64,000 bases of DNA from Candidatus Woesearchaeota archaeon. GTDB lineage: Archaea; Nanobdellota; Nanobdellia; SCGC-AAA011-G17; GW2011-AR18. The stretch is from NCBI GenBank assembly GCA_018302765.1, contig JAGVZG010000001.1, positions 68,482-132,481 of the forward strand. The letters are read 5' to 3'. This document shows, in pieces, positions 10,280-62,739 of this stretch. A program made the translations under genes and the position numbers. Below the pieces are notes generated by a model. That model saw nothing but the letters and a program-made list of their open reading frames with translations, was not told the DNA's origin and did not search any database. Each line of letters begins with the position of its first letter. Within the stretch, counting starts at the first letter, position 1.

Positions 10280-11178
10280 AGTGATTTTCTAGATGTATGA
10301 ACAGATATTAATTCTTCACCGCTAGATATTATTGTTTCTAAAATACTTTTTCTTAATTTATCTATTCCTTTCGCTGACAGCACAATCTTGTCATCTATTA
10401 TAGTGGTGCTTTGCAAGTTGAATTTTTTTCTTAAAATATTGGCTACATTCTCTAAATTTGTAGTTTTTATTTCCAGCTGTTCACTTGAACCTTTCTTTAA
10501 TGATTCTATATCTGAATTAATAATTATTTTTCCAGCATCAAAAATTAAAACATAATCAACAATCATTTCCAATTCTTCCATATGATGACTACTAATAATA
10601 ATAGTTACGCCTTTTTTTTCTGATAAAAACTTAATCACATTCAGCAATTGTTTTTGTCCAATGGGATCCAGAGCAGTAGTAGGTTCGTCCAATATTAATA
10701 TTTCAGGATCGTGCATTAGAGCTTGTATAATTAGTAATTTTTGTTTCATACCAGAACTAAATGTTTCTATTTTCTTTTCTATAGCATTATCTAAATCAAA
10801 ATTCTTTAGAAATTCTTGAGCATAATTAATGGCTTTATCTTTATCCATTCCAGATAATCCTCCCATATATATTAAATAATCTAATGGAAGCATATCGCCG
10901 TATAGTGCTGGCTTTTCAGGAACGTAACCAATTTTGGAATAAATTTTTGTCAGCCCGCCAGCAATGTTAAATTTGACATTTCCAAAAGTAGGCTTAATCA
11001 AGCCCATAAGCATTTTTATTGTTGTTGTTTTACCAGAACCATTTTCTCCGACTAAACCATAAACTTTGCCTTTATTTATACTAAAGCTTATATCATCAAC
11101 TGCTTTAAATAAACCTTTTCTTGTTTTGAAATATTTTTTTATGTTGTTTACTTCTATTATCGTTTCATTCTTTTCCAT
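10246..11178 (-). CDS. ABC transporter ATP-binding protein
   Basis: Walker A GENGSGKTT, ABC signature FSSGMKQK, Walker B ILILDEPT, and an H-loop. Confidence 0.85.
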   Translation of the reverse strand: MEKNETIIEVNNIKKYFKTRKGLFKAVDDISFSINKGKVYGLVGENGSGKTTTIKMLMGLIKPTFGNVKFNIAGGLTKIYSKIGYVPEKPALYGDMLPLDYLIYMGGLSGMDKDKAINYAQEFLKNFDLDNAIEKKIETFSSGMKQKLLIIQALMHDPEILILDEPTTALDPIGQKQLLNVIKFLSEKKGVTIIISSHHMEELEMIVDYVLIFDAGKIIINSDIESLKKGSSEQLEIKTTNLENVANILRKKFNLQSTTIIDDKIVLSAKGIDKLRKSILETIISSGEELISVHTSRKSLWSVVMEKLKK

Positions 11179-14015
11179 TTTAGTATACTTCCTATTGCTA
11201 AAAATGATATTAAAATAAGTGCTATTATGTATTGTGAGATTGAAGTACTTCTAGATATATTTACAGTCAGGTAATCAACATTTGAGACTGTTGTTCCTGG
11301 TATTGTACTTAGAACAATTAAATTATGTTGGCCTGCTGATAATTTTATATCTTCTGAGTTACCAAGTGTTGATGTATAAAATTGATTGTCAGCGTATATT
11401 AATTTTAAATCTCCATTTGTAAATTGTATGTTAAAATCTCCTTTGAAGTATGCATTATCTGCTAAATTTAGTATAGATTGTGGCTTGCTTAGTTCTACAT
11501 CATTTGAATATATTTTACTATCGTATATAGATAGAGGCATTAAGGATATAATTTTTATTTTGTAGTCATTTAAATCAACTAGTATATTACTTGTTGGCCT
11601 AAAGGCTTCTCCACTTGTGCCATATTTTTGAGTTTCACTGGATTTAATTATTAGGTAATTTCCTGCAATATCTATATTTTTTAGTTCTCTAATGTCGATG
11701 TTCTGGTTGAATTTTCCTTTTTCATATACAATGTTACTTTTAGAAGAAGAAACATCAGTTACTATATCGTAACTATTTATAACAGATTTTGAGATTTTAT
11801 CAATGCAATATAGTTTTAAGTTAGAGCTTCCATCACTGCCAACTACAACGACGTCTTTTCTTTCATCCCCGCCACAATTATAAATCAAAACAGAATCTTT
11901 TCCAGGATTTAAGTAGTTAGGCAAGAAATCTAAAATTACATTGTTATTTTCATCTACTAAGACCGGAGCTCTTTCTGAATAATACAGAAGATGTTCACTG
12001 TCTAAAATTTCAGTAAACTGTAAATTATTAAAACTTTCTTCATTTACAACAGATAAGTCATTAACTCTGTATCTTAATATTTTGTTTCCACCAAATAATA
12101 TTATATTATTTCCAATTATATACTTGTGCTGCTGTATAAAATAAGTACCATTAATTATTTTGCTCTTTATCAGATTGTATTTTGCTCCATCAACAATACC
12201 AAACTTATCATTGCTTACAACTAAAACCTCTTTAACACCATCGTTGTTTATATCCTTAGTGCCATCTGTAAAAGAAAAATAAAAGTCTATATTTCCATCT
12301 TTGATCTCAACTTTATTCTTCTCAAATGTTGCAAGGCTTACTTCATAAGTATGTCCAGAATACAATAAGATAAATATTTTATTGCCTAAGTAAGCATAAC
12401 TGCTAATTTGCATTTTTTTCCCTATGTCAGAAGATTCCCAAAAAATCTTTTCATTCTGCAGTTTAAAAAGTTCATCTTGTGATACTTTATTTTTATTTTC
12501 TAATTTTGTTACATCTTCTCTAACGCTAATTATATTTTTCTCTATAGCTGGCTTATCACTTGCATTTGCAGCTGCTAACTTGGTCTGTAATTCATTAAAT
12601 TTGGTTTGCTTTTCAGATATTGACTTAAAATTACTATTTATAGAATTATTAACAGAACTAATTTTATTTATTATATCATCAATTATATCTGCCTGTTCTG
12701 CAGGAGAAACTTGGAAACTTATTTGCTTTAAAGCACTGGTTTTTGGGTATAAAATTCCTAAGGAATTTATATCAATGCCGCTTCCAAATAAAACTAAAAC
12801 CTCTTTAACACCATCGTTATTAATGTCATTTATTTCTTCTAGTCTAGAAATCTGAACGTTTTGTAGTTTGGTATCATCTACAGTACCAGAATATTGTTTA
12901 TATTTATAACTAAACGGCCAGTTTTTACTTATTATGAATTTAGAACTATCTAAATTTAAATTTACAAACTGTTTGTCAATTGAAAAAGTTCCTACTAATT
13001 TATTGTTTTTATATATGTTTACATTATTGTTACTATATGTCAAAATCAATGAATTATCAAACCAAGCTATTTTTGATGAAGAGTCTAAACTTATATTGCT
13101 AACATCAGCTATGTATTTTAATTCATTATCTTTTAGTACTTTAAGTTGTTTGTCCTGCACTATAAATGCTTGCTCATCATCTATGTTTGGCTGGTTTGTG
13201 GTGTCTAATTTAGTCTCTTCACTTCCAAATGTATTATAAATATAAAATTTATTTTCAAATTCATCAACTAAAATAATTTTATCACTAATAGCACTTACAA
13301 GTGTTTTTTGCAAACTAAAGCTGCTGTATTTATTTAATCTAGAATCATAGACAGTAAATTCAGTAGTAGTTCTGGCAGAATAAACTAATTTATACTGCAC
13401 AATAAAATTGCTTGTTAGAAAATACTTTTCCTGTCCGGTTTTTATGCTTTTTTCCTTTATTTTATTAAAATTTAAGTCATATACAACTATTTTTTGTGGT
13501 GTAATAATCACAAAATTATTTCCTAAAACACCAAAGTTTATTATATAATTTCCGGCATTTATTACTTTATTTATTTCACCGTTAATTGATTCATATATAT
13601 TATTAAAGTTTGAAAAAAATGTTCTTCCATTGTTTTTTAATATTTTTGTGGTTGGTGTAGGATAATTATTCTTGTAAGTTTTTTTTGTTATTGGAATTGT
13701 TTTAATTACTTTACCTTGTTTGCCATCTATAATTTTAGTGCTGGGAACAATAAAACTTTGCGAGCCAATTAAAATATCTTGATAACCATTACCATTTACA
13801 TCTTCTATTATTTCAAGGTCATTTATTTTGTCTTCATCAAAAAAGCTCCACATAAATTCTCCTTCTTTAGAAAATGCTAAAATATTACTTCCAGAACCAA
13901 ATAAAATGTAATTTGATGAAGATTTACTTATACTAAATTCAGCATAGCCTGCTGCACCAACAACCGGAAAAATTACTAAAGCCATCAAAATTAAGTATAT
14001 TGTTTGTTTTAGCAT
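11157..14015 (-). CDS. large surface protein with beta-propeller-like (FG-GAP/VCBS-like DxNGDG) repeats, central coiled coil and C-terminal TM anchor
   Basis: 952 aa with an N-terminal signal peptide and repeated motifs VNGNGYQDILIGS, NNDGVKEVLV (x2) and CGGDERKDVVVVGSDG. A heptad-like Lys/Glu stretch is present. The C-terminus is hydrophobic followed by KWKRMKR. It overlaps the ABC ATPase start. Confidence 0.6.
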   Translation of the reverse strand: MLKQTIYLILMALVIFPVVGAAGYAEFSISKSSSNYILFGSGSNILAFSKEGEFMWSFFDEDKINDLEIIEDVNGNGYQDILIGSQSFIVPSTKIIDGKQGKVIKTIPITKKTYKNNYPTPTTKILKNNGRTFFSNFNNIYESINGEINKVINAGNYIINFGVLGNNFVIITPQKIVVYDLNFNKIKEKSIKTGQEKYFLTSNFIVQYKLVYSARTTTEFTVYDSRLNKYSSFSLQKTLVSAISDKIILVDEFENKFYIYNTFGSEETKLDTTNQPNIDDEQAFIVQDKQLKVLKDNELKYIADVSNISLDSSSKIAWFDNSLILTYSNNNVNIYKNNKLVGTFSIDKQFVNLNLDSSKFIISKNWPFSYKYKQYSGTVDDTKLQNVQISRLEEINDINNDGVKEVLVLFGSGIDINSLGILYPKTSALKQISFQVSPAEQADIIDDIINKISSVNNSINSNFKSISEKQTKFNELQTKLAAANASDKPAIEKNIISVREDVTKLENKNKVSQDELFKLQNEKIFWESSDIGKKMQISSYAYLGNKIFILLYSGHTYEVSLATFEKNKVEIKDGNIDFYFSFTDGTKDINNDGVKEVLVVSNDKFGIVDGAKYNLIKSKIINGTYFIQQHKYIIGNNIILFGGNKILRYRVNDLSVVNEESFNNLQFTEILDSEHLLYYSERAPVLVDENNNVILDFLPNYLNPGKDSVLIYNCGGDERKDVVVVGSDGSSNLKLYCIDKISKSVINSYDIVTDVSSSKSNIVYEKGKFNQNIDIRELKNIDIAGNYLIIKSSETQKYGTSGEAFRPTSNILVDLNDYKIKIISLMPLSIYDSKIYSNDVELSKPQSILNLADNAYFKGDFNIQFTNGDLKLIYADNQFYTSTLGNSEDIKLSAGQHNLIVLSTIPGTTVSNVDYLTVNISRSTSISQYIIALILISFLAIGSILKWKRMKR

Positions 14016-14060: not shown

Positions 14061-15521
14061 TTATTTAACATTTCCTATCGGAATTAATTTTGTTACAGGT
14101 TTAGAAATTCCTGCTTTAGCTAATGCATCAATTACGTCATTTATTTCTTTGTATGCAGATCCTGCTTCTTCAGCTAATCCAGACATTGATCCAGACTTAA
14201 CATAAATCCCTCTTTGTTCCATTTCTTTTTGTAGTTGATCTCCTCTAAATTCTTTCTTGGCTTGATGCCTTGACATTGTTCTGCCAGAACCATGTGCTGT
14301 ACTTGAGAAAGTTTCATTGTCTGCTTTTTCTGTACCGACTAATAAATAACTTCCTGTTTCCATTGAGCCGCCAATTATTACTGGTGATCCTATATCTCTA
14401 TATAATTTTGAAACCTCTGAATTTCCTGGACCCTGACACAAAGTTGCGCCTTTTCTATGAACAACTAATTTTTTCTTTTTTCCATCAATTTTAAATTCTT
14501 GTAATCTTGCTAAATTATGAGCTACATCATAGACACAGTGCATCTCCATATCTTCTGCTTTAGTTTTGAAAATTTTTTCAAAACCTTCTCTTATTCTATG
14601 TAAAATTACTTGTCTATTTGCGAAAGCCATATTTGCTGCACAAGCCATTGCTTTGTAATAATCTTGTCCTTCCTTGCTTGAAAATGGAGCACATGATAAT
14701 TCTTTATCTAAAATTTTTATTTTTTCTCTTTGCATTACATTTTCAAAAATTTTTAAGTAGTCTGTAGCAACCTGATGACCAAAACCTCTAGAGCCACAGT
14801 GGAACATTATTACAATCTGATCTGGAAAAATTCCAAATTTCCTTGCTATATCTTTATCAATAATATTTTCTGGTTTTACATGCTGAATTTCTAGATAATG
14901 ATTACCTGAGCCAAGTGTTCCTAGTTGATCAATTCCTCTTTGTCTTGCTTTTTGTGAAACTTTACTTGAGTCAGCCCAGTCAATTCTTCCATTACTTTCT
15001 ATTCTTTCTAAGTCTTTTTGCCAACCATAATTATTTTCAACACACCATTTAACACCTTCTTCCATTACATTATTGAATTGCTGATTATTTATTTTTACAA
15101 AACCTTTGCAGCCTACACCAGATGGTACTGTTTGGAAGAAAGTATTCACTAGTTCTTTTAATTTAGGCTGAACGTCTTTAATTGTGAGATTTGTTGTAAC
15201 AAGCCTCATGCCACAATTTATATCAAAACCAATTCCTCCTGGAGAGATTACTCCTGTCTCAGCATCCATTGCAGCAACTCCACCAATTGGAAAACCATAC
15301 CCCCAATGCCCATCAGGCATGCATAGTGCAGCTTTTTGTATTCCAGGTAGGCATGCTACATTGGTTACTTGGTCAAACACTCCGGGATCCATTGTTTCTA
15401 ATAATTTTTTAGTTGCGTAAATCCTTGCAGGTACGTTCATACCTTGCTTGAAACTAGTTGGGATTTCCCAAACTGCTTCTTCTATCTGTTTTGTATCTTT
15501 TGGTATATTTGACATAATCAA
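14061..15521 (-). CDS. rtcB: RNA-splicing ligase RtcB
   Basis: 486 aa. Metal-binding motifs typical of RtcB are present, including DGHWGYGFPIGGV, HCGSRGFGH and NHYLE. Confidence 0.9.
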   Translation of the reverse strand: MIMSNIPKDTKQIEEAVWEIPTSFKQGMNVPARIYATKKLLETMDPGVFDQVTNVACLPGIQKAALCMPDGHWGYGFPIGGVAAMDAETGVISPGGIGFDINCGMRLVTTNLTIKDVQPKLKELVNTFFQTVPSGVGCKGFVKINNQQFNNVMEEGVKWCVENNYGWQKDLERIESNGRIDWADSSKVSQKARQRGIDQLGTLGSGNHYLEIQHVKPENIIDKDIARKFGIFPDQIVIMFHCGSRGFGHQVATDYLKIFENVMQREKIKILDKELSCAPFSSKEGQDYYKAMACAANMAFANRQVILHRIREGFEKIFKTKAEDMEMHCVYDVAHNLARLQEFKIDGKKKKLVVHRKGATLCQGPGNSEVSKLYRDIGSPVIIGGSMETGSYLLVGTEKADNETFSSTAHGSGRTMSRHQAKKEFRGDQLQKEMEQRGIYVKSGSMSGLAEEAGSAYKEINDVIDALAKAGISKPVTKLIPIGNVK

Positions 15522-15724: not shown

Positions 15725-17041
15725 ATGGCAGACGTAGTTGTTCCGGATGGATCTAGCAGAGATGACGATACAGATAAAATTATAACTATAGATATGAGTG
15801 CAATAGCAGATGATACTACGCCTTTACTTCAACAAGTTCATAATGAAAAAAGTGAACCAATGGCTATACCTAATTCTTTAAATTTAAATCTTATTCATGA
15901 TACTAAAATTCATGAGCAAATTGAAGATTTGCGTGTTAGAGACTGTCCTAGTTTAGAAAAGGTTTTGATAGGTTTGGGATATGATGATTCACACAATATT
16001 GTTAATGTATCTGTAGAAGACGCTGATCCTATTTATTATAAGGTTGGAACTGGTCTTGTATTTCAAGTAGACTTAGAAATTAATATTGGTACGACTACAA
16101 GTGGTTTTGTTGGAATTGATTATAGGACATGTGAAATTCCGAATTTGCATGTTTTGGCAAGAAATTCTTCTAATTTAAATCGTAATAATAAATTAGCGAG
16201 CTTGTATAAGAAATGGGTAGATTTTAGTTATAAACATAATTTTAGTAAAATTGTAGGAATGATGGACAGCGATGATGTCGTTAGAATATTCAGAATTTTT
16301 GATTATGATAATATTGAAAATGTTGAAATTCATAAAGTTGAATTAGTTAAAAATGAATATTATTTAGAGGCTTCTTGTTTTTATAGATCTTCTGTTGGGA
16401 GTATAAAATCAAGTTTATTTTGTGGAAAAATTCCAGCGAGTAAAATTTTATTAGACGTACGTTATTTGGAAGCAAATGTGATGAATTTGAAGAGAAAATC
16501 TTCAGCAGGAAAAATTATATCTATTGGCGCTTTTGGACTTGCTAGTTTGCTTGGCTTAGCTTATTTAGGATTGAGTACTCAGGATGTTTCTGGCTATAGT
16601 CCTGATTTATTGACTTCAAGTGGCGGTGATTTAGTAAGTCCTGCAGATATGACGCTTCATGAAGATCTTAAGTCTGAATATTTAGGTGACGCTAGCAATG
16701 GCGTTGCGGTTGATTTAGGAAGTAGTTCTAGTCATCCACCAGTTAGAATTTCTTTTATGGCACGCAGACCTAAAACTAAGGGCAGTTTATTTGTTAAGGT
16801 TGGTGGTGCTTCAGATGGAAGACATGTATTTAAGTATACTGCTGGAAAAGTAGGTTCTTATAGTACAAAAACAGGTAAGCCATCTTTTTATTCAGATGCA
16901 TTTAATGATTGGGTTGGCACAACTGCTGACAAATATGAAAAAGTTGATTCAGACGGTGTTTATAATAATAAAAATTGCAACAAACCACAGAAAGGTTTAA
17001 TGAAAGATATGCCTGCTTATGTTTGTGCGCAGCCAAAGTAA
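15725..17041 (+). CDS. membrane protein P1: acidic N-terminal domain, central TM helix, C-terminal FKY/CKPQ/AYVC domain (paralog family)
   Basis: TM segment ISIGAFGLASLLGLAYLGL. The C-terminus (VRISFMARRPKTKGSLFVKVGG...VFKY...VYNNKNCNKPQKGLMKDMPAYVCAQPK) is near-identical in key motifs to the 32512 and 33830 proteins. Confidence 0.55.
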   Translation: MADVVVPDGSSRDDDTDKIITIDMSAIADDTTPLLQQVHNEKSEPMAIPNSLNLNLIHDTKIHEQIEDLRVRDCPSLEKVLIGLGYDDSHNIVNVSVEDADPIYYKVGTGLVFQVDLEINIGTTTSGFVGIDYRTCEIPNLHVLARNSSNLNRNNKLASLYKKWVDFSYKHNFSKIVGMMDSDDVVRIFRIFDYDNIENVEIHKVELVKNEYYLEASCFYRSSVGSIKSSLFCGKIPASKILLDVRYLEANVMNLKRKSSAGKIISIGAFGLASLLGLAYLGLSTQDVSGYSPDLLTSSGGDLVSPADMTLHEDLKSEYLGDASNGVAVDLGSSSSHPPVRISFMARRPKTKGSLFVKVGGASDGRHVFKYTAGKVGSYSTKTGKPSFYSDAFNDWVGTTADKYEKVDSDGVYNNKNCNKPQKGLMKDMPAYVCAQPK

Positions 17042-17102: not shown

Positions 17103-18176
17103 ATGGCTGCAATAATTCCAGATGTTTTACCTTTATTGATTGGACAAGATTTATTAGTTAGATATAGTGACGCTGCTACATTGCCTCCTTTTTATGAGGG
17201 GTATGTTGCTAAACTTGTCGATTCTTCGTTAGGAGGTATAAGTAGGATAGCTGATTTAGACACTTTGACTGCAGATCCATGTGATTTAGACGGTATGTTT
17301 TTTAATAGTACTAATGACACTGCTGCCAGGATAGAATACTTTAGAATTTATAGTGGTCGTATTGATAGATTTGATGCAAGTTCTGGAAAATTGTTTTACA
17401 GAGCTGACGCTAGTCTAGGAGTAATTGGAAGTATTGGTGACAGCAGCAGTATATTTGAAGTTGGTAGAAGAGAATATTTATTTTGCTATTACAATGCTAG
17501 AAATGGTAAATGTTCTGTATTAAACGTTAATAATGATTTATGTAATGTGAGTTCTTATCTTCTTCCTTTTCTAAAAACATTTGTTCCTATTACGCATGTT
17601 GAATGCAGCAGTTCTCCTGTAGGAGTTATATATAATAAAGTATTTTTGGATAAGTTAGACATTCCTGAAGATTTTGTTAAAGGTATTCAGGGCGTTGTGC
17701 TTAAAGAAATAAAAAGAGAAAAGTCAAGTAATAGTTATATTTTATCAGGTACAGTTTATTATGCTAACCCAAATGCCAGAGGATTTTCGTTTGTTAAAGG
17801 TGCTTTTAGTAAATTTGATAATTTATTTTTAGAACATGGAACTAATTTTTTTGTAGATGGTGATTATTTGAAATCATGTGGCGTTGATTTAGGCCAAGAT
17901 AATGACTATTCTTATGGTAGTCTTGTTATCAGTAGAGGCACTAATCTTGATTGGAAATTGATTGGATTGGCTGGAGGTATTGCTTTAGGAGTTTTATCTG
18001 CAATTTGGATTGCTTATAATATTGTTCCTGGTTATTCTGCTGTAATGGCTCCAAGTGTTGATGCTGGCGCTGACTTAATTAAATCCTCTGCAGATAAAGA
18101 CAATAGTGGACCAAAATATAAGAAAAAAATTTCTAAACCTAAAAAACATAAAGCCAAGAAAAAATCATCTAAATAA
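17103..18176 (+). CDS. tail-anchored Cys-containing protein P2 with Lys-rich C-terminus
   Basis: 357 aa with several N-x-S/T sequons, a TM helix near the C-terminus (LIGLAGGIALGVLSAIWIAY) and the tail KKKISKPKKHKAKKKSSK. Its stop abuts the convergent archease stop. Confidence 0.5.
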   Translation: MAAIIPDVLPLLIGQDLLVRYSDAATLPPFYEGYVAKLVDSSLGGISRIADLDTLTADPCDLDGMFFNSTNDTAARIEYFRIYSGRIDRFDASSGKLFYRADASLGVIGSIGDSSSIFEVGRREYLFCYYNARNGKCSVLNVNNDLCNVSSYLLPFLKTFVPITHVECSSSPVGVIYNKVFLDKLDIPEDFVKGIQGVVLKEIKREKSSNSYILSGTVYYANPNARGFSFVKGAFSKFDNLFLEHGTNFFVDGDYLKSCGVDLGQDNDYSYGSLVISRGTNLDWKLIGLAGGIALGVLSAIWIAYNIVPGYSAVMAPSVDAGADLIKSSADKDNSGPKYKKKISKPKKHKAKKKSSK

Positions 18177-18611
18177 TTAAATGTCAACAAGCACTTTTGC
18201 TTTCCATTTGTCTTCTTCTTTTATTATTTCAAATTCATGCATTGTAATTGCCTTTGCATCGTCATGGAGATCCTGAGTTTCTCTGTTGATAAAATCACCT
18301 TCACATCTTGCAAATATTTCATATACTTTATTTTTGTGTGATATAACAACATCGAACTTGTTAAACAGCAAACCTTCTGTGTCTTTAACAAATATAAGTT
18401 CTGAAAGAAAATCATAAAGAAGATTTTCTATGGAATTTGTTTTTAGTGATATTTCATAATGCTCTTTAGTCTCCAATGTTTTTATGTCTACCATGATTTC
18501 TTCTAGAGCCAGAGCTGAATTTTCAAATAGGCTTTCTAATGTTTTTCCATAGGCTTCAAAAATTATATCTGCTGTGTGTGGTAGAAATTTATACTTCATC
18601 TTCTTTAACAT
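18177..18611 (-). CDS. archease (RtcB activator)
   Basis: 144 aa. The N-terminal FLPHTADIIFEAYG motif (HTAD) and a C-terminal ...KVLVDI match the archease family. Confidence 0.8.
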   Translation of the reverse strand: MLKKMKYKFLPHTADIIFEAYGKTLESLFENSALALEEIMVDIKTLETKEHYEISLKTNSIENLLYDFLSELIFVKDTEGLLFNKFDVVISHKNKVYEIFARCEGDFINRETQDLHDDAKAITMHEFEIIKEEDKWKAKVLVDI

Positions 18612-19053
18612 TCCTTCTTTCTACAACAATATTTATTTGCGTTGTCACACCTTCTTTATCTTCCCTTATTAAAATATTTCTGTCAGTTATTTGTTTTACA
18701 ATGTCTTTTATTGTGTAATCTGACTTCATTTTATCTCCAATCAAAACAGCATTTAGCATATATTCATTTGAAATTTGTTCTATTGTGATCTGCTTTATTG
18801 CTGATAATACAAATAACTCGTTATTTGCTAGTTCAAATAATCTTTTTAGAAATTGGAAAAGCAGATTTTTAAGATCCCTTGCTCTTATTATCAGTGTTTT
18901 TGTAATAGCTAGATCTATTTCTTCTGTGTTTATTACAATTTCAAATAATGACTTTGCTATTTTTGAGAACGATGCTTCTAAACTTGATGCTTTTTCTGAT
19001 ATTGTTATTTCTTCGACTTTGTGCTTTGACATAAGCTTTTTAATGCAATGCAC
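18589..19053 (-). CDS. archease-like paralog lacking the HTAD motif
   Basis: 154 aa. ASSLEASFSKIAKSLFEIV and ARDLKNLLFQFLKRLFELANNELFV align with archease core helices, but the metal-binding H-T-A-D is replaced by T-I-S-E. It overlaps the archease start by 23 nt. Confidence 0.45.
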   Translation of the reverse strand: MHCIKKLMSKHKVEEITISEKASSLEASFSKIAKSLFEIVINTEEIDLAITKTLIIRARDLKNLLFQFLKRLFELANNELFVLSAIKQITIEQISNEYMLNAVLIGDKMKSDYTIKDIVKQITDRNILIREDKEGVTTQINIVVERRNVKEDEV

Positions 19054-19144: not shown

Positions 19145-21649
19145 ATGGGAAAGGTTTTGAACTACGTAGGTAGAGGCATAAGAAATTTTGTTAGAAGGCA
19201 CAAGAAAGGGATTTCGCTAGCTGGAGCTTTAGTATTTGGCACTTCTGCTGCTTTAACTTGTGGCATTTATAAGTATATAACTACTCCTCCAAAGGATTTT
19301 GGAAGAGTAGGGCAATACTGGCATACTTACAAAGAACGTGAAAAATTAAAAAGTATAGAAAATAATGGTGCTTTAGAAAATAAGTTGAATATAAATAGAA
19401 AAGATAATGGTTCTTCAGGCGGGGCTTATCCTGATCCTAATATAATAGGCATTTGGCCGTTAACTCCGGATAACGGAATTAAGGTAGTTACTTCCAGTGG
19501 CAGAGAAATTGTTACTAGATACGCCACTTGGAACTATGCTTCTTTGGATGAAGTACCTAAAACTGTTATAAATTCTGTTTTAAGTGTAGAAGATGCAGAC
19601 TATCTTGAGCATAAAGGAGTAAACTGGAATTTAAGGAAGATTAAGGGTTTATTTTCTCCTATTCTTGGTGGAAGACGTGTTGGTGGAAGTGGCATAACAG
19701 AACAAGTATCTAAAATGATGTTTACTGATTTTGGTAAGATAAAGCCTAGGAGATCAGCAATGCAGAAACTTCGTGAGTTGCGTTATGCTTATTATTTAGA
19801 TAGTGTGCTTGGCAAGGAACAAGTATTAGAATTTTATTTGAATACAACGCCATTAGGAGACAGTTGTTATGGCGTAAAGTGCGCTGCTATGAATTACTTT
19901 GGTAAGGAACTGAGTAATTTAACTTTTCCTGAGAGTTTGTTTTTAGCAGCAATTATTAAAAATCCAGGAGCAAATCCAAAGAATAGTGGTTTTGAATTTC
20001 AAAAACGTAGATATGACATGCTCTGTGAGTCTTTGCACGATCTTGAAAGGATTACTGAAGATCAATATAAGGAGTGCAAATCTGCAGATGTGATTAAAAT
20101 GAAGCCTGGCTTAAAAAGAAGAAGATCTCCAATAAGTGATCCTAGTGTTTTTAGTGCTTTGGCTTATGAATTAGAAAATTATGATTTTGATTTAGTTGAC
20201 AATGTTGTTCATCAGCCAAATCCAGGTTTTGGGTTTACAGTTTATACTACAATAAATGATGAGATGCATGACGCTTTAGGCCAAGCATTTGTGGATGGAC
20301 TTAAACCAAATCAAGAACAGGTTCAACTTGGCGCTGGCGCTGTGCTGAATAGCGAGGCTCAAATAGTTGCTATTTTAGGCAGGACAGACTACAGTACGCT
20401 AAGCGGAGCTTGGAGTTTTAGGAATCTTGCTGTAGCTGGGAGACGTGCTGCTGCTTCTTCAATAAAGCCTTTTGTTTATGGTTCTTGCTATGACCAAGAG
20501 AATTCAAATATTACATGCAAACCAGGCAATGTTATTTCTGATTCTAAAAAAGGATTGAGAAATCCTCCTCATAATTTTGATGGAAAGTATGAAAGAAGAA
20601 TGTCTTTAGCAGAAGCTTTAACTTCATCGAATAATGTAATAGCTTATAAAGTGTGTCGTAGAATTGGACTTAGAAATGTACTTCCAGTTATAGAAGCTGT
20701 TGGATTTGATGTTGCTGAATATGAAACAGTATTTAGGGACTGCAGAAATACTGCTTTAGGCTCAGGGCGTGTAACTCCTTTAGAACTTGCTGCTGCTTAT
20801 CGTGTTTTTGTAAAAGACGATGATGGTAATTTTTCTGCAGAATATAGAAAGCCAACAATTATTGATAGGGTTGATTTATGGTCTTTTAATTACAAAGTAA
20901 ATCTATCTGCAACAAAAGTTTTTCGTAGTGCTAACACAGTTGAATCTGTTAGAATTAGCTTAGACAGGCTTGGAAATAAAATTGTTGGCAGTAAATATGA
21001 AGCAGATATAGGTTTTAAGACTGGCACTCCAAACCCCACTACACATTGGTATTTAGGTGGAGTTCTTGACCTTGATAGTGTTTCTTATTCTATAGGTTTT
21101 CTGGCTGTGGCTAAACCTAAAGTTGTACCTTCAAAAAAAAATCCTAAGGTTTTAGTAAAAGTTTATCCTAATAAGTTGTATGCTAGTGGCGTTCTTGGTC
21201 CTGTGGTAAAAAGTTTTGTTGACGGAGTTGCTCCTAGAAAAGAAATGAAGCCTATTGATCTATATGTTCCTGCTGTTGCTAGCTTGGACAGCGTATGCAG
21301 TAATTATAATTTAGCAAGCGTTGAGCTAACTTTGCCTAGTGCTGATAATCACGATCTTGAGACACTGGGAGATATTTTAAGTGCTTGCTCTTCTTATTTT
21401 TCTGCTAATAATGAAAATGAAAAGTATGGCTTATTTTCTTACGCTGCAGGCCGTGTCTGGGAGACTTTGTACAGTAATGAAGCAACGTCTTCTCCAGGCA
21501 GCAAAACTGCTTTGCTTTACTATAGCAGTGCAATTAATTCTTATAAAACAGCTGTTCAGGAAGACAGTTTTAGTAGTTTAGCTGAAGAAAGAATTAGAGA
21601 TTTAAAGATTAAAAGAGAACAGGAAGCTAATAGAATTCATGCAGATTAA
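19145..21649 (+). CDS. class A penicillin-binding protein (bifunctional GT51 peptidoglycan glycosyltransferase / D,D-transpeptidase), N-terminal TM anchor
   Basis: GT51 motifs EDADYLEHKG, GGSGITEQ, QKLRE and VLEFYLNTTPLG...YGVKCAAMNYFGK...LTFPESLFLAAIIKNP. Transpeptidase motifs SSIKP (SxxK), SSN (SxN) and KTGT appear with canonical spacing. A TM segment lies near the N-terminus. Confidence 0.8.
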   Translation: MGKVLNYVGRGIRNFVRRHKKGISLAGALVFGTSAALTCGIYKYITTPPKDFGRVGQYWHTYKEREKLKSIENNGALENKLNINRKDNGSSGGAYPDPNIIGIWPLTPDNGIKVVTSSGREIVTRYATWNYASLDEVPKTVINSVLSVEDADYLEHKGVNWNLRKIKGLFSPILGGRRVGGSGITEQVSKMMFTDFGKIKPRRSAMQKLRELRYAYYLDSVLGKEQVLEFYLNTTPLGDSCYGVKCAAMNYFGKELSNLTFPESLFLAAIIKNPGANPKNSGFEFQKRRYDMLCESLHDLERITEDQYKECKSADVIKMKPGLKRRRSPISDPSVFSALAYELENYDFDLVDNVVHQPNPGFGFTVYTTINDEMHDALGQAFVDGLKPNQEQVQLGAGAVLNSEAQIVAILGRTDYSTLSGAWSFRNLAVAGRRAAASSIKPFVYGSCYDQENSNITCKPGNVISDSKKGLRNPPHNFDGKYERRMSLAEALTSSNNVIAYKVCRRIGLRNVLPVIEAVGFDVAEYETVFRDCRNTALGSGRVTPLELAAAYRVFVKDDDGNFSAEYRKPTIIDRVDLWSFNYKVNLSATKVFRSANTVESVRISLDRLGNKIVGSKYEADIGFKTGTPNPTTHWYLGGVLDLDSVSYSIGFLAVAKPKVVPSKKNPKVLVKVYPNKLYASGVLGPVVKSFVDGVAPRKEMKPIDLYVPAVASLDSVCSNYNLASVELTLPSADNHDLETLGDILSACSSYFSANNENEKYGLFSYAAGRVWETLYSNEATSSPGSKTALLYYSSAINSYKTAVQEDSFSSLAEERIRDLKIKREQEANRIHAD

Positions 21650-21802: not shown

Positions 21803-23083
21803 ATGGCTAAGGCAAAACCACATTTAAACGTTGTATTTGTAGGTCACGTAGACCACGGAAAGAGCACTACAGTTGGGAGATTAATGTATGACGCAGGTGT
21901 TATTCCTGAGCAGGATATGAGAAAACTTAAGGAAATGGCTCAGCAGTTAGGAAAGGTTGGTTTTGAATTTGCTTTTGTTATGGATAATCTTAAAGAAGAA
22001 AGAGAGAGAGGAGTTACTATTGATTTAAGCCATAAAAAATTTGACACTCCTAAATTCGAATGTACAATTATAGATGCTCCAGGGCACAGAGATTTCATTA
22101 AAAATATGATTACAGGCGCTAGCCAAGCAGACGTTGCTTTCTTAGTTGTGGCTGCACCTGACGGAGTAATGGCACAAACTAAAGAACATGTTTTCTTGTT
22201 AAAGACTTTTGGTGTAAATCAGATTGCTATTGTTGTTAACAAGATGGACGTAGTAAAATATGACCAAGCTAGATTTAATAAAGTAAAGGAAGATGTAAGT
22301 GCTTTGTTAAAGTCTGTTGGATACAAGCCAGATCAAGTTAAGTTTATTCCAGCTGCTTCTTTCTTAGGAGATAACGTAGTGAAGAAGAGTACAAATATGT
22401 CTTGGTATACTGGATCAACTATCTTAGAACAAATAGATAATTTCAGTCCTCCTGAAAAACCAACAAACTTGCCGCTAAGATTGCCTTTGCAAGATGTTTA
22501 TAATATTACAGGCATTGGCGTTGTTCCAGTTGGTAGAGTTGAAACTGGAGTAATGAAAGTTGGCGATAAAGTGATTATAGTTCCTGGAAGGGAAGGAACT
22601 GGTATAAAAGGAGAAGTTAAAACTATTGAGATGCATCACGAGCAAATACAAGAGGCTGTTCCAGGTGATAATATAGGATTTTCAGTCAGAGGAGTTAATA
22701 AAAAAGATATTGCTAGAGGAGATGTTGTAGGACATGAAAATAATTCACCAATAGTTGTAAGTGAGTTTACAGCACAGATAGTTGTTTTAAATCATCCTAC
22801 AGTATTGACAGTTGGATACACTCCTGTATTTCATATACACACTGCACAAGTTGCTTGCCAATTTGTTAAGTTGTTAGCAAAACTTGATCCTGCAACAGGA
22901 CAAGTAATGCAAGAAAATCCTGACATGCTAAAGAACGGAGATGCAGCTAGGGTTGTTATAAAACCTACAAAACCTTTAGTAATTGAGAAACAGAAAGATA
23001 TACCTCAAATGAGTAGGTTTGCAGTTAGAGATGCAGGTCAAACTGTTGCTGCAGGCATGTGTATTGATTATGTGAAAAAGTAA
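21803..23083 (+). CDS. tuf: translation elongation factor 1-alpha (aEF-1A)
   Basis: 426 aa. [14 protein letters not shown] and the FKYAWV-like segment ([22 protein letters not shown]) are diagnostic of the archaeal/eukaryotic EF-1alpha form. Confidence 0.95.
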
Positions 23084-23185: not shown

Positions 23186-23497
23186 ATGCAAAAAGCAAGA
23201 ATAAAATTGGCAAGCGCTGAAATTGACTTACTCAATGAAGTAGTTAATTCTATAGTCGATATAGCTAAAAAAACTAATACTGTTATTAGAGGACCAATTC
23301 CTTTGCCAACTAAGAAATTAAAAATAACCACTAGAAAGTGCCCTTGCGGCGACGGCAGGGCTAGTTTTGATAGGTTTGAAATGAGAGTTCATAAAAGACT
23401 AATTGATTTAGGCGTTGATGAGAGAGCATTAAGATTAGTTATGAGAGTTCCTTTACCAAAAGGGGTGAACATAGAAATAAACCTTTTGGAGAAGTAA
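23186..23497 (+). CDS. rps10: 30S ribosomal protein S10
   Basis: 103 aa. The conserved tuf-rps10 order of archaea is present, and [11 protein letters not shown] matches the S10 loop. Confidence 0.85.
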
Positions 23498-32511: not shown

Positions 32512-33774
32512 ATGTCTATTAAAAATTGGACAATAGGTGGCCTTGGTGCACTTGTTTTAGGACTTGCTGCTTCTTCTTTAACTTGTAAGCCTTGCAATGA
32601 TTTAGCAAGAAAAGTTAGTGGTAAAGAACTTCCTTTATTTGGTCGTGTTAATGGAAATACGCAAAACAAAAATCCTGCTCCTTTGCCTAAGCCTCATGTT
32701 GCAGATGACGAACCTGCTGCTGACGAAGGTAGTAGTGATGATAGTTCTGAAAAAACTACAGAATCTGCAGAAGTAGAATCAAAAAGTTCTGGTTCATCAG
32801 ACGCAGATTCTTCTTCTAAAAAACCTAGTTTTGTTAAAGTTGGCAATGTTGGAAATAAAGACGTATTCAAATATGACTTAGGTAAAGTTAGGGATGGAGA
32901 GGGTTCATTTTTGTACGCTGTTAGATTTAATAAATGGGACGACAGTTCTGAAGGAGACACCTATAAAAAAGTTGGTCAAAATGATGTTTACAATAATAAA
33001 AATTGTAAGCCACAGAAAAATTTTATGAAAGGTATGCCTGCTTATGTTTGTGTTCTTCCTAATAATGGGGAAAGTGGAGACACTCCTGGAGATGCTGGTG
33101 ATCGTGCTCCAAATAATGTTGAAGTGAGGTCAGATTCTGGTGCAGTTGCAACAACAGATCCTACATCTACTCGAACTTTGCACGTAGCAATAGAACGTCC
33201 AAGTTCTCCAGATCTTGGTTCAGATTCTGGCGTAGGCAGTTCTGGAACAATTGAATTAGTTGTTAATCCTTATGCTAATGCTACTGAGACAGCAACTCCT
33301 GCTGAGAGTGGCGACTCTGAAGATGATAGTTCTGGCGATACTTACGATGAAGATGCTGCTGGCACTTCTGGTCGTCGTGATTATACTGACCCTTTTGGCG
33401 TTGTTTTGTCTGGCGACCCAGTTGCAGCACAATATGGCACTGCAATAATAAGTGGTTTTAATGAAGCTTATCAAGATAAATATAGGACTAAGAACAGCGG
33501 TAAATGCTTAAGTGTAAATATTGGTTTAGAATACGCTGTTGGAGCAAAAGGCGAACTTGTTAGTATAAGGGGATATTTTTGTGGGGACTTAGAATCATGC
33601 GCTGGAAGAGGAAAACTTTATTTGGATCAACCTCATGATTCTAGTTTAGATGAAAATTTTACTTTTGGAAGAGAGCTGATTAAGGTAATAAGAGTAGAGA
33701 ATTCTAAAAGGCCACTTGTTTCTGTCAAAAGAGGAAACTACGTAGGTTCTATAATTGAATTTGGTTGTGAATGA
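32512..33774 (+). CDS. secreted protein P3: signal/TM N-terminus, acidic Ser/Asp/Glu-rich low-complexity linkers, FKY/CKPQ/AYVC domain (paralog family)
   Basis: N-terminal hydrophobic segment GGLGALVLGLAASSL. The KKPSFVKVGNVG...VFKY...VYNNKNCKPQKNFMKGMPAYVCVLP domain matches the C-terminus of the 15725 protein. Confidence 0.55.
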   Translation: MSIKNWTIGGLGALVLGLAASSLTCKPCNDLARKVSGKELPLFGRVNGNTQNKNPAPLPKPHVADDEPAADEGSSDDSSEKTTESAEVESKSSGSSDADSSSKKPSFVKVGNVGNKDVFKYDLGKVRDGEGSFLYAVRFNKWDDSSEGDTYKKVGQNDVYNNKNCKPQKNFMKGMPAYVCVLPNNGESGDTPGDAGDRAPNNVEVRSDSGAVATTDPTSTRTLHVAIERPSSPDLGSDSGVGSSGTIELVVNPYANATETATPAESGDSEDDSSGDTYDEDAAGTSGRRDYTDPFGVVLSGDPVAAQYGTAIISGFNEAYQDKYRTKNSGKCLSVNIGLEYAVGAKGELVSIRGYFCGDLESCAGRGKLYLDQPHDSSLDENFTFGRELIKVIRVENSKRPLVSVKRGNYVGSIIEFGCE

Positions 33775-37127: not shown

Positions 37128-37871
37128 ATGTTATACTTAATTGGACTAGGATTGGGAGATGAGAAGGATTTAACTCTTAATTCTCTGGACGTTATTAAAA
37201 ACTGCAGTTTTGTTTACTTAGAAAATTATACTTCTTTTTTAGTATTTGATGTTAAGAAATTAGAATCTTTAATTGGCAAAAATGTTATTTTAGCAGAAAG
37301 GGAGTTTGTTGAAACCAGTGATGAAATGATTAACAATGCTTTAAATTCTGATGTTGCATTTTTAGTAAAAGGTGATGTTTTTTCCGCAACAACGCATGTG
37401 GACTTGTTTTTGAGAGCAGTTCATCATGGCATTAGGTGTAGTGTTTTGCATAATTCTTCCGTGCTTACAGCTGTAAGTGATACTGGATTAAGCTTATATA
37501 AATTTGGAAGAGTTGTTTCTATACCTTTTGATTATAATAATGTTTACAGTTCTTATGAAACATTTTTAAGCAACGGAGATTCACATACACTTTTCTTACT
37601 AGACTTAAAACCCAGTGAGAATAAATTCATGAACTTTAAAGACGGATTTAATTATTTATTAAATAAAAGTGGAGAAAGAAATGACAGTAGAATTGGCCTT
37701 GACACTATGTGTGTTGTTTGCGCAGCATTAGGAACTGATAAGGCTGTTATAAAATATGGCAAGATCTGTGACTTATTAAATTTTAATATTGATGCTTACC
37801 CGCAGTGCATTATAATTCCTGGCAAGACGCATTTTGTTGAAGAAGAAGTTCTTAATTTATTTAGACTATAA
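37128..37871 (+). CDS. dph5: diphthine synthase
   Basis: MLYLIGLGLGDEKDLT at the N-terminus, and a tetrapyrrole-methylase fold pattern characteristic of Dph5; 247 aa. Confidence 0.8.
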   Translation: MLYLIGLGLGDEKDLTLNSLDVIKNCSFVYLENYTSFLVFDVKKLESLIGKNVILAEREFVETSDEMINNALNSDVAFLVKGDVFSATTHVDLFLRAVHHGIRCSVLHNSSVLTAVSDTGLSLYKFGRVVSIPFDYNNVYSSYETFLSNGDSHTLFLLDLKPSENKFMNFKDGFNYLLNKSGERNDSRIGLDTMCVVCAALGTDKAVIKYGKICDLLNFNIDAYPQCIIIPGKTHFVEEEVLNLFRL

Positions 37872-57375: not shown

Positions 57376-59139
57376 TTATTTTTTAACTATGTCTAATTTT
57401 ATATTAAGTTCTTTTAACTGTTTTTCATCAATGTCGCTTGGTGAGCCATCCATAGGACATTGAGCTGCTTTGTTTTTTGGAAATGCTATTACTTCTCTAA
57501 TGTCTTTTAATCCTATTAGTAGTGTAACTAATCTGTCTAAACCTATACCAACTCCTCCGTGTGGCGGACCAGCATACTTATATGCTTCAAGTAAAAATCC
57601 GAATTTCTTTTCTGCTTCTTTTTCACTTAACCCTATTATTGAGAATATTTTTTTTTGTATTTCTGGTTTGTGGATACGTAAGCTTCCTGAGCATAATTCT
57701 ACTCCATTTAAGACAAGATCATAAAGTGTTGCATATACTTTACCTGGATCAGAATCTAAAAATTTAATATGTTCTTGCTTTGGCATGCAAAACGGATGAT
57801 GTTCTGGTTCCCATTTTTGTTCTTCTTCATTCCATGCAAAAAGTGGAAAGTCTGTAATCCAGCAGAATTTATATTCATTTTTTGGAATGGTTTTAAGTTT
57901 TTCTGCTATTGCTAATCTAACTTGACCAAGCGCAGTGCAAGTAGTCTTGAAACTGTCTGCTATAAATAATAACAAATCACCTTCTTTTGCTTTTGTTACT
58001 TTTATTAATTCTTTTTGTAATTTTTCATCTATATATTTTGTAATTGAACTTTCTAGTTTTCCTTTTTCTACTTTTGCCCATGCCATTCCCTTAGCGTGAT
58101 ATCTTTTTGACAGTTCAATTAATTCATCAATGTCTTTTCTTGAGAAATTGGAGCAGCCGACTGCATTTAGACATTTAATTAATCCTTTATTTTTAACTGC
58201 TGACTTAAATACTTCAAAATCTGAATCTGCAACAGTATTAGTTACGTCAATTAATTCTAAATTAAATCTTAAGTCTGGCTTGTCAGATCCGTATCTTGAC
58301 ATTGCTTCATTATAAGATAATCTAACAAATGGTTTTTTGATTTTTATATTTCTTGTTTTAAATACTGCTTCCATTAATCCTTCTACAGTTTTAAATATGT
58401 CTTCTTCAGTAACAAAACTCATTTCTATGTCGATCTGCGTGTGCTCTGGCTGTCTGTCTGCTCTTAGATCTTCATCTCTTAGACATCTAGCTAATTGAAA
58501 GTATCTATCGCAGCCAGCCACCATAAGAATTTGCTTATATAATTGTGGGCTTTGAGGCAGGGCATAAAATTTTCCAGGATTTATCCTGCTTGGAACTAAG
58601 TAATCACGTGCTCCTTCAGGAGTTGGTTTTACGAGCATTGGTGTTTCTATTTCTAGGAATCCTTGAGACGATAGATATTCTCTTGCAGCTTGGGCAGCTT
58701 TATGCCTTATTAACAAACGTTCCTGCATTACAGGTCTTCTTAAATCTAGATATCTATATTTTAGTCTTATTTCTTCATTTGCTTCTATTCTGTCATCAAT
58801 TTCAAAAGGCGGAATTTCTGATTCATTTATTATTTCTAGTTTTTTAACCTCTACTTCAATTTCTCCTGTTATTAGTTTTTTATTTTCCATTCCTTTTGGT
58901 CTTTCTCTTACTTTACCTTCTATTTTTATACACCATTCTCTTCTTAGCTTATTTGCATCTGGAATTTTACTTGGATCTAGAACTACTTGGGTAAAACCAT
59001 ATTTGTCTCTTAAATCTATAAAGATAATACCGCCATGATCTCTTCTAGAGTTAACCCAACCACATAACTTAATCTCTTTTTTAATATCTTTACTTGTAAG
59101 TTGTCCACAAGTGTGGGTTCTTAGTGTTGTTGTTAACAT
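57376..59139 (-). CDS. aspS: aspartyl-tRNA synthetase, bacterial-type (with GAD insertion domain)
   Basis: 587 aa. N-terminal OB fold (GGIIFIDLRD) and class II motifs (FRAD...QPEHTQIDIE; GGVGIGLDRLV). Confidence 0.85.
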   Translation of the reverse strand: MLTTTLRTHTCGQLTSKDIKKEIKLCGWVNSRRDHGGIIFIDLRDKYGFTQVVLDPSKIPDANKLRREWCIKIEGKVRERPKGMENKKLITGEIEVEVKKLEIINESEIPPFEIDDRIEANEEIRLKYRYLDLRRPVMQERLLIRHKAAQAAREYLSSQGFLEIETPMLVKPTPEGARDYLVPSRINPGKFYALPQSPQLYKQILMVAGCDRYFQLARCLRDEDLRADRQPEHTQIDIEMSFVTEEDIFKTVEGLMEAVFKTRNIKIKKPFVRLSYNEAMSRYGSDKPDLRFNLELIDVTNTVADSDFEVFKSAVKNKGLIKCLNAVGCSNFSRKDIDELIELSKRYHAKGMAWAKVEKGKLESSITKYIDEKLQKELIKVTKAKEGDLLLFIADSFKTTCTALGQVRLAIAEKLKTIPKNEYKFCWITDFPLFAWNEEEQKWEPEHHPFCMPKQEHIKFLDSDPGKVYATLYDLVLNGVELCSGSLRIHKPEIQKKIFSIIGLSEKEAEKKFGFLLEAYKYAGPPHGGVGIGLDRLVTLLIGLKDIREVIAFPKNKAAQCPMDGSPSDIDEKQLKELNIKLDIVKK

Positions 59140-61230: not shown

Positions 61231-61347
61231 GATTTTGTATTGCAATTGTTTATTGAATTGAGTTTTCGCTCTAACTACCAAGTGGTTGCTATGACTGGCT
61301 ATAGAAATCTTTTTATATTTAAGCATTTACAGTATTTCGAGGGTTTT

Positions 61348-62739
61348 ATGATGAAGGGGAAATTAACTATACTGTTGCCTATTTTGTTTGTTTTATTGTC
61401 TAGTTTTGTATTTGCTGCTCCTATAGCTCCTACTAATTTTCAAGCCAGAGCAGTCAGTATAAATACTATTAATTTAACTTGGAACTACAATTTTGGCAGT
61501 GAAGACCGTTATTATATATACCAATCTACAGACGGTACAAATTTTGCATATAAAACTACAGTTCTTTTTAGTGCTTTTGCCATGAGTACTTTGATTGGAA
61601 GTTTATCTCCTAATACTAGGTATTGGTATTCTATTAGGTCTTCAGACGGATTTCAAAATTCCACTGCTGTTTTTGCATTTCCGGTTTATACTTTGGCTAG
61701 TACACCTACATCTGTGGCAGCCGCAACCTTAAACAAAACCTCTGTTTTTGTTTCGTGGAATGGAGATGGAAATGATTATTATGTAACAGCAACTACAGGT
61801 TTAACTTCAAAGGCTTCAGGTTTTGTGACAGGCAAAAATTATACTTTTACAGATTTAAGTTGTTCTTCTACTTACGGTTTTCGTGTTTTAGGTAGAAATG
61901 GAGATGGACGTAATTCAAGTTTTTCGTTCCCTGAATTTTCTGCAACAACAAGTTCTTGTTTTACTCCTCCTCCTGCAGACGCTGTTAGTCCGCGAGTTAC
62001 TGGGGTTGTTGATAAATCTATAGCTGTTAGTTGGGACGATGGTGGCGGAGGAGAAATCCAATATAAATTAGAGCAGTCTACAAATGGAACAGATTTTGTT
62101 CAGATTGCTACAGTTCCTGCAACAACTTTACAATTTGCTTTTAGTTCTTTGGTGCCAAACACCCCTTATTGGTTTAAGATTAAAGCTACAAATGGCGAAA
62201 CTACTACTGACGGAGTTATAGCGATTGTAGCTCCTACTCATACAAGAGCAGAACCTCCAGGGTTAACTCAAGGTACTGCAACAGAGACTGAAATTCCTTT
62301 GTTTATAGATCCAGGAAATAATACTGATTATACATTATATAATATTAGAGTAAATAATGGCGGCTTTTTAGGTTCTTGGCAAAATCTTTCTTCTTGGGGC
62401 AATATAGTTGCTAGAAATCTAATACCTAATACTGTTTATGTTTTTGATGTTTACGCTGTAAATGAAGGTGGGTATATAGCACAGGGCTCAACAGTTGTTG
62501 AAAGTACACTTCCTACAACTACTCCATTGGCTCCTTATAATTTAGCTGTTAGTGACGTAGTAAATGATTCAGTAACATTACAATGGTCTCCAAGTTTTGG
62601 AACAGAAACAAATTTCTTGATAGAGCAAGACAGCGGAGCAGGATTTGTTCAGGTAGGTTCAGTTCCATCAACATCAACATCATACCAGGCTACAGGTCTT
62701 CTTCAGCATATACAAATACAGAACAGGCAACTACATTAG
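61348..62739 (+). CDS. fibronectin type III repeat surface protein (N-terminal part, up to the frameshift)
   Basis: Signal peptide MMKGKLTILLPILFVLLSSFVFAA and a GAGGG Shine-Dalgarno. Repeated ~95-aa FN3-like units (PTNF..L.W; Y.Y.V.A.N..G). Confidence 0.6.
   Translation: MMKGKLTILLPILFVLLSSFVFAAPIAPTNFQARAVSINTINLTWNYNFGSEDRYYIYQSTDGTNFAYKTTVLFSAFAMSTLIGSLSPNTRYWYSIRSSDGFQNSTAVFAFPVYTLASTPTSVAAATLNKTSVFVSWNGDGNDYYVTATTGLTSKASGFVTGKNYTFTDLSCSSTYGFRVLGRNGDGRNSSFSFPEFSATTSSCFTPPPADAVSPRVTGVVDKSIAVSWDDGGGGEIQYKLEQSTNGTDFVQIATVPATTLQFAFSSLVPNTPYWFKIKATNGETTTDGVIAIVAPTHTRAEPPGLTQGTATETEIPLFIDPGNNTDYTLYNIRVNNGGFLGSWQNLSSWGNIVARNLIPNTVYVFDVYAVNEGGYIAQGSTVVESTLPTTTPLAPYNLAVSDVVNDSVTLQWSPSFGTETNFLIEQDSGAGFVQVGSVPSTSTSYQATGLLQHIQIQNRQLH

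Follow-up and report, generated by a model that had tools for sequence, protein, structure and literature searches.

A class A penicillin-binding protein in a family of DPANN archaea and its possible action on a bacterial partner's cell wall

The penicillin-binding protein gene and its predicted product

The window analysed here, a 64,000-nucleotide stretch of contig JAGVZG010000001.1 (positions 68,482 to 132,481) from the genome of a Candidatus Woesearchaeota archaeon (GCA_018302765.1), carries an open reading frame (ORF) of 834 amino acids with an ATG start (19145..21649, +) that encodes a class A penicillin-binding protein (PBP) of an archaeal-lineage subfamily. Archaea are usually said to have no PBPs, and no report of a class A PBP in archaea was found in the open-access literature, where papers on DPANN peptidoglycan hydrolases were found. 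The source genome is that of a DPANN archaeon (1.02 Mb in 28 contigs, 100% complete, the window being contig C27) in which an archaeal L7Ae is present and bacterial L20 is absent, and the nearest named relatives of its elongation factor EF-1α, at 82-85% identity, are entered as 'Candidatus Nanoarchaeia archaeon' and 'Candidatus Woesearchaeota archaeon'. The host lineage is DPANN, Nanoarchaeota, and the family is probably Woesearchaeales-like. The sequencing runs in which this genome occurs come from groundwater or soil, and no RNA run was among those listed, which bears on expression in neither direction.

On its upstream side the PBP gene adjoins a divergent paralog of archease (18589-19053, −; Pfam, 54.9 bits), followed by the canonical archease (18177-18611, −; Pfam, 136.9 bits) and, further out, by the tRNA ligase RtcB with which archease works (14061-15521, −; 565 bits). 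Downstream, the archaeal marker aEF-1α (21803-23083, +), which has an eEF1A-type C-terminal domain, starts 153 bp past the PBP stop, and the gene for ribosomal protein S10, in a str-operon context (23186-23497, +; neighbour annotation), follows about 100 bp past aEF-1α. A tetrapyrrole methylase that is probably Dph5 (37128-37871, +; neighbour annotation) lies elsewhere in the window. The original prediction had named these same neighbours, with the one error that it placed S10 as well as aEF-1α 150 bp downstream of the PBP, a distance that fits aEF-1α alone.

That prediction also described a complete bifunctional class A PBP, which the profile matches, the motifs and a structural model matching solved PBPs bear out. 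In a Pfam scan, residues 128-292 match the transglycosylase family of glycosyltransferase family 51 (GT51) (19526..20020, +; PF00912, 131.9 bits, E 2.3e-38), a domain that also aligns to the glycosyltransferase domains of PBP1A, while residues 404-632 match the transpeptidase family (20354..21040, +; PF00905) with a weaker, still significant score (41.7 bits, E 1.1e-10) and a structural match to PBP transpeptidase domains. Also as predicted, there is a single N-terminal membrane anchor (19211..19267, +): a hydropathy scan finds one hydrophobic stretch, at residues 23-41, with a run of positive charges before it, and the AlphaFold2 model agrees, placing the catalytic domains C-terminal to the anchor. 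From the positive N-terminus and the single anchor, the protein is predicted to have a type II, N-in topology, which puts both catalytic domains on the outer side of the membrane.

Catalytic residues were placed by alignment to solved PBP1A chains (HMMER searches of PDB chains) and to 24 relatives. The GT51 motifs fall at positions 149 (EDADYLEHKG), 180 (GGSGITEQ), 207 (QKLRE), 227 (VLEFYLNTTPLG), 242 (YGVKCAAMNYFGK) and 259 (LTFPESLFLAAIIKNP), the putative catalytic glutamate being E149 in motif 1, EDxxYxxHxG (19589..19591, +), which is present in 6/6 family orthologs and in at least 90% of the 24 subfamily members. Other GT51 features conserved among the relatives are D150, H156, GGSxITxQ and the YLN motifs. 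The transpeptidase motifs SSIKP (438), SSNN (494) and KTGT (625) are typically spaced. Of these, the SxxK motif S438-S-I-K441 (20456..20467, +), with S438 as the predicted nucleophile, is invariant in the 24 subfamily sequences and aligns to the SxxK of PBP1A, and the KTGT motif K625-T-G-T628 (21017..21028, +) is likewise invariant. The motif positions given in the original prediction stand, except that its SxN triad, read as SSN from S494, is better placed one residue later, at S495-N496-N497 (20627..20635, +), where S495 and N497 are invariant in the 24 sequences and the triad aligns to the bacterial S-K/R-N. The gene is therefore well supported as a bona fide bifunctional class A PBP with intact predicted catalytic sites.

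An AlphaFold2 model built on an alignment of the 24 relatives (mean predicted local distance difference, pLDDT, 83; predicted template modelling score, pTM, 0.72) has its best Foldseek matches in Staphylococcus aureus PBP2, Escherichia coli PBP1b and the PBP1A proteins of Acinetobacter baumannii and Haemophilus influenzae (top structures 2olv, 3dwk, 5hlb, 3udf and 5u2g; E 1e-24 to 1e-20), and the modelled fold is that of the PBP1A/PBP1B/PBP2 class. The anchor-GT51-transpeptidase architecture, the motifs and the predicted fold are thus shared with these bacterial enzymes, from which the archaeal protein differs in its C-terminal domain, its variant SxIK and SNN motifs, its own deep clade and a genome without a murein precursor pathway. 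The OB/ODD domain of PBP1A (PF17092), which lies between the glycosyltransferase and transpeptidase domains and is found in most bacterial PBP1A matches, is absent from the protein in the Pfam scan, and the protein does not fit the Gram-negative, LpoA-activated PBP1A subtype, which has this docking domain. At the C-terminus, from about residue 680 to 834 (21182..21649, +), an AlphaFold2 model shows an all-helical domain resembling tetratricopeptide repeats (TPR) (pLDDT 84). This domain is specific to the subfamily and present in most of its members, four lacking it; it had no Pfam match, no significant Foldseek match in the PDB and no usable match in the ESM Atlas, and the VIA-wide comparison returned generic TPR-like repeats only (Z 10-12). 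It may be a module for binding a partner protein, and it loosely resembles the TPR-containing LpoA, the activator of PBP1A.

An archaeal subfamily at a conserved archease locus

Five further genomes of this GTDB family carry orthologs of the PBP, namely G001, which belongs to the same genus and shares the synteny with aEF-1α, and G017, G006, G005 and G021. They align over nearly the full length at 26-34% identity (blastp, 1e-131 to 1e-47) and are much closer to the PBP than any bacterial PBP is. These archaeal relatives were reached by searches of the genomes and by a profile search of cluster representatives; a homologue search, even when given the archaeal alignment, yielded bacterial PBPs only, as these are favoured by its word filter. 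The profile search (HMMER, 1.84 billion cluster representatives) recovered 18 further subfamily members at 377-1156 bits, below which there is a clear gap in score to a continuum of bacterial PBPs at 286 bits or less. In a quick IQ-TREE search the family PBPs form a single long-stemmed clade that excludes the bacterial PBP1A, PBP1B and PBP1C sampled (Shimodaira-Hasegawa-like approximate likelihood ratio test, SH-aLRT, 100), and the clade stays single when the 18 metagenome relatives are added (SH-aLRT 99). Taken together with the SxIK motif in place of the bacterial SxFK, the SNN in place of SRN or SKN, the C-terminal helical domain and the neighbouring archease paralog, this monophyly marks a lineage-specific archaeal subfamily. 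The resemblance to PBPs is far beyond chance, given the full-length matches within the family, the Foldseek E-value of 1e-24 and the conservation across the lineage. In the 24 subfamily sequences, which are about 25-40% identical to the query, the catalytic residues of both domains are either invariant or at least 90% conserved, and their retention across sequences so divergent indicates that the predicted glycosyltransferase and transpeptidase activities are both under purifying selection.

The position of the gene is conserved as well. In 6/6 PBP-carrying genomes of the family the PBP adjoins a canonical archease and a divergent archease paralog, and the paralog, which scores 35-68 bits against the Pfam archease family compared to 135-147 bits for the canonical copies, is in every case the gene that separates the canonical archease from the PBP. 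The paralog set comprises the copy in the window, those of G001, G005, G006, G017 and G021, and those on metagenome contigs L011-L019, L065 and L067. Six family genomes without a PBP also carry the paralog. In one of the PBP-bearing metagenome modules (L065; 2306-5275, −) the RtcB gene contains an intein (Intein_splicing domain), and on one metagenome contig an S-layer-like gene follows the PBP. A paralog of an RtcB cofactor and a cell-wall synthase are odd companions in one conserved module. In the congeneric genome G002, aEF-1α comes directly after the archease pair, and the promoter region of that aEF-1α shares 85% identity with the sequence 3' of the PBP in the source genome, whereas the sequence upstream of the PBP has no counterpart in G002; comparison of the two junctions indicates that the PBP either entered the module at a fixed site or was lost from that site.

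PF00912 was detected in 8 of the 24 genomes of the family but in none of 16 other families of the same order, and GT51 proteins occur in 13 of 401 Nanoarchaeota genomes. Outside the family these proteins are other PBPs, which in the tree fall among a range of bacterial clades, and this suggests that class A PBPs were acquired on several separate occasions across the DPANN. Bifunctional proteins with both GT51 and transpeptidase domains were seen in G049, G356, G246, G233, G318 and G383 (loci L058-L064); they share this architecture with the subfamily described here and were probably acquired separately, whereas the subfamily is set apart by the score gap and keeps its place in the archease module. 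Within the family itself, a further group of large proteins of 1054-1350 amino acids, in G024 (L040; 4723-8385, −), G022 (L043; 2093-5257, −) and G014 (L044; 4889-8941, −), has GT51 without a transpeptidase domain and forms its own clade, apart from the bifunctional subfamily.

Horizontal acquisition, one of the possibilities raised in the original prediction, agrees with these results, in the form of an old event at the level of the lineage. The GC content at third codon positions (GC3) of the PBP gene is 0.217, within the normal range for the genome (0.201 ± 0.037; ORFs of at least 300 amino acids), and this, together with the five orthologs in one clade across the family, rules out a recent transfer. 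An old lineage-level horizontal acquisition from bacteria, kept with some losses, is well supported. Archaea can evidently take up bacterial cell-wall machinery and retain it.

Possible substrates and roles

The gene content indicates that the archaeon makes no murein of its own. Mur ligases (Mur_ligase domain search), the D-Ala-D-Ala ligase Ddl and the FtsW/RodA proteins of the SEDS (shape, elongation, division and sporulation) family are all absent from the complete source genome, and its only match to the MurJ family is weak and of a kind also seen in archaea without murein. Given the missing Mur ligases, Ddl and FtsW/RodA, the cell is predicted to have no lipid II, no peptide stems and no murein, so the source of lipid II that a class A PBP has in its own cell is lacking here. 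Self-made murein is ruled out on these grounds, and the murein-like layer that had been proposed for the lineage is not supported. Synthesis of archaeal pseudomurein was rejected too, as there is no Mur_ligase domain, the protein is a PBP and the lineage is DPANN rather than methanogen; the pseudomurein of Methanobacteriales is made with Mur-ligase paralogs and transglutaminase-type cross-linking, not with PBPs. This DPANN family thus keeps a class A PBP whose catalytic residues are intact, though it is unable to make the normal substrate.

In a cell with neither lipid II nor D-Ala-D-Ala peptides of its own, the retained active sites are most likely to use the substrates of a partner, and we consider the chances slightly better than even that the protein is an old acquired class A PBP acting on the peptidoglycan or lipid II of a bacterial partner, the acquisition being well supported and the action being the part that we infer. 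The N-terminal helix would hold the PBP in the archaeal membrane with both catalytic domains facing out, where it would work on the host's peptidoglycan substrates at sites of cell-cell contact. The transpeptidase would take pentapeptide stems of the host, and the GT51 domain would polymerise lipid II that reaches the contact site, or act only when such lipid II is available. The enzyme could serve to repair or remodel host wall opened by the archaeon's own SLT and M23 hydrolases, or to cross-link host peptidoglycan so as to anchor the archaeal cell, and the C-terminal TPR-like domain may bind a partner protein in the process.

Interaction with a bacterial partner, which the original prediction had also raised, is made plausible, indirectly, by candidate hydrolases encoded in the same genome and by the literature on such enzymes. 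One is a secreted protein of 2257 amino acids that starts with a signal peptide, ends in an M23 peptidase domain and also has an SLT domain of the lytic-transglycosylase-like kind (G000:C26:27251-34024, −; locus L071), and another is a 380-residue SLT protein (G000:C16; locus L072, 514-1656, +; SLT, 54 bits); M23 peptidases are widespread among the family's genomes. Giant M23 proteins akin to the 2257-residue protein were also seen in G001 and G006. Peptidoglycan hydrolases of the Woesearchaeota, Pacearchaeota and Nanoarchaeia have been proposed to engage bacterial walls (PMC8204110, PMC9723730, PMC12352652). These DPANN enzymes (large murein-like lytic transglycosylases and M23 zoocin-like peptidases) are, like the PBP, directed at peptidoglycan, but they degrade it, whereas the PBP is a predicted synthase and transpeptidase. 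The Candidate Phyla Radiation (CPR, Patescibacteria) offers a further parallel, its episymbionts also being ultrasmall and engaging bacterial walls, and a Paceibacterota PBP1A (P0091) is among the bacterial homologs of the archaeal protein; CPR bacteria, however, make their own peptidoglycan precursors, which the source archaeon does not.

Action on host peptidoglycan, if it does occur, would make the PBP the first murein-synthesising enzyme of archaea. The natural resistance of archaea to β-lactams is usually ascribed to their lack of murein, and under such a role β-lactams could indirectly affect these archaea or their partnerships. The protein also makes it possible to test whether DPANN live on bacterial hosts and how a host cell wall is engaged.

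Several points weigh against action on a bacterial partner. We know of no host for this archaeal family, the partner being inferred, and many DPANN live as episymbionts on other archaea, in which peptidoglycan is absent. The gene is patchily distributed, with PF00912 in a third of the family genomes (8/24), and 3 of the 6 genomes that have the archease paralog and no PBP are at least 90% complete; such frequent loss implies that the PBP is not essential to the lifestyle. M23 peptidases are also common in PBP-less genomes of the family, so that the peptidoglycan toolkit is not tightly tied to the PBP. How lipid II would be supplied to the GT51 domain in an archaeal membrane is unexplained.

A more specific version, which we regard as improbable, is that the archaeon makes a peptidoglycan bridge at the host interface from host lipid II and host wall. 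Lipid II might then be obtained, for example, through membrane contact or an exchange of lipids, on which DPANN are thought to depend, and the bridge would anchor the archaeon to the bacterial wall or mend the openings made by its own SLT and M23 hydrolases.

Equally doubtful is that the PBP uses archaeal lipid-linked sugars, such as dolichyl- or undecaprenyl-linked glycans, to make an envelope polymer for the archaeon itself, in the form of a layer, murein-like or of glycan, that has no peptide stems. An intact and conserved GT51 domain would suit this, and a lipid carrier might exist given the bacterial-type isoprenoid pathways reported for Woesearchaeota (PMC8204110), but the invariant transpeptidase site (S438, K441, S495-N497 and KTGT) would be left without a D-Ala-D-Ala donor, there are no SEDS proteins and no true MurJ, and the PBP is often lost within the family. 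We give no better prospects to a role in scavenging, in which the PBP, chiefly with its transpeptidase as a DD-carboxypeptidase or endopeptidase, would join the SLT and M23 hydrolases of the same genome in degrading bacterial peptidoglycan for nutrients such as D-Ala and muropeptides. PBP transpeptidase domains are able to hydrolyse their substrates, and vampiristic, peptidoglycan-degrading lifestyles have been proposed for DPANN (PMC9723730); yet a scavenger would not need the GT51 domain, whose catalytic glutamate and motifs are kept, and degradation is usually the work of dedicated hydrolases, of which the genome has its own.

That the gene is a non-functional relic kept by chance is very unlikely. 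The divergent transpeptidase, with its weak Pfam score, and the loss of the gene in several relatives would be expected of a relic, but the gene is intact at full length in at least six genomes and 18 metagenome clusters, and catalytic residues that are invariant or nearly so in 24 such divergent sequences point to strong purifying selection.

The integrity of the contig across the locus, on which the original prediction had asked for a check, is confirmed. An identical PBP protein is encoded on 22 public contigs that stem from independent samples and assemblers, with the order archease–archease–PBP–aEF-1α–S10 in all 9 of the matches listed among these 22 metagenome contigs, and Logan contigs of three separate studies extend unbroken and without mismatch from position 18000 through the PBP into aEF-1α, crossing both junctions. 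An assembly chimera or bacterial contamination, which might be suspected because class A PBPs are a bacterial hallmark and the closest database matches are bacterial PBP1A, is therefore ruled out by these independent and junction-spanning contigs, and is contradicted too by the orthologs at the equivalent locus in other family genomes and by the normal composition of the gene. A spike in Logan depth within the conserved part of aEF-1α (21926-22076) reflects sequence common to other organisms and is not a feature of the genome.

Other genes in the window

The secreted paralog family at 15725, 32512 and 33830, which had been suggested as a functional associate of the PBP, does not hold together: the ORF at 33830 shares nothing with the other two, and none of the three resembles the PBP. 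The ORFs at 15725-17041 (+) and 32512-33774 (+) have about 85 amino acids in common at 51% identity and no Pfam match. Upstream of RtcB lies an ORF of 952 amino acids that also has no Pfam match (11157-14015, −). An aspartyl-tRNA synthetase encoded at 57376-59139 (−) carries a GAD insertion domain, usually a feature of the bacterial-type enzyme and here in an archaeal genome, and a fibronectin type III protein (61291-62739, +; fn3, 100.9 bits) may have a role at the cell surface or in adhesion.

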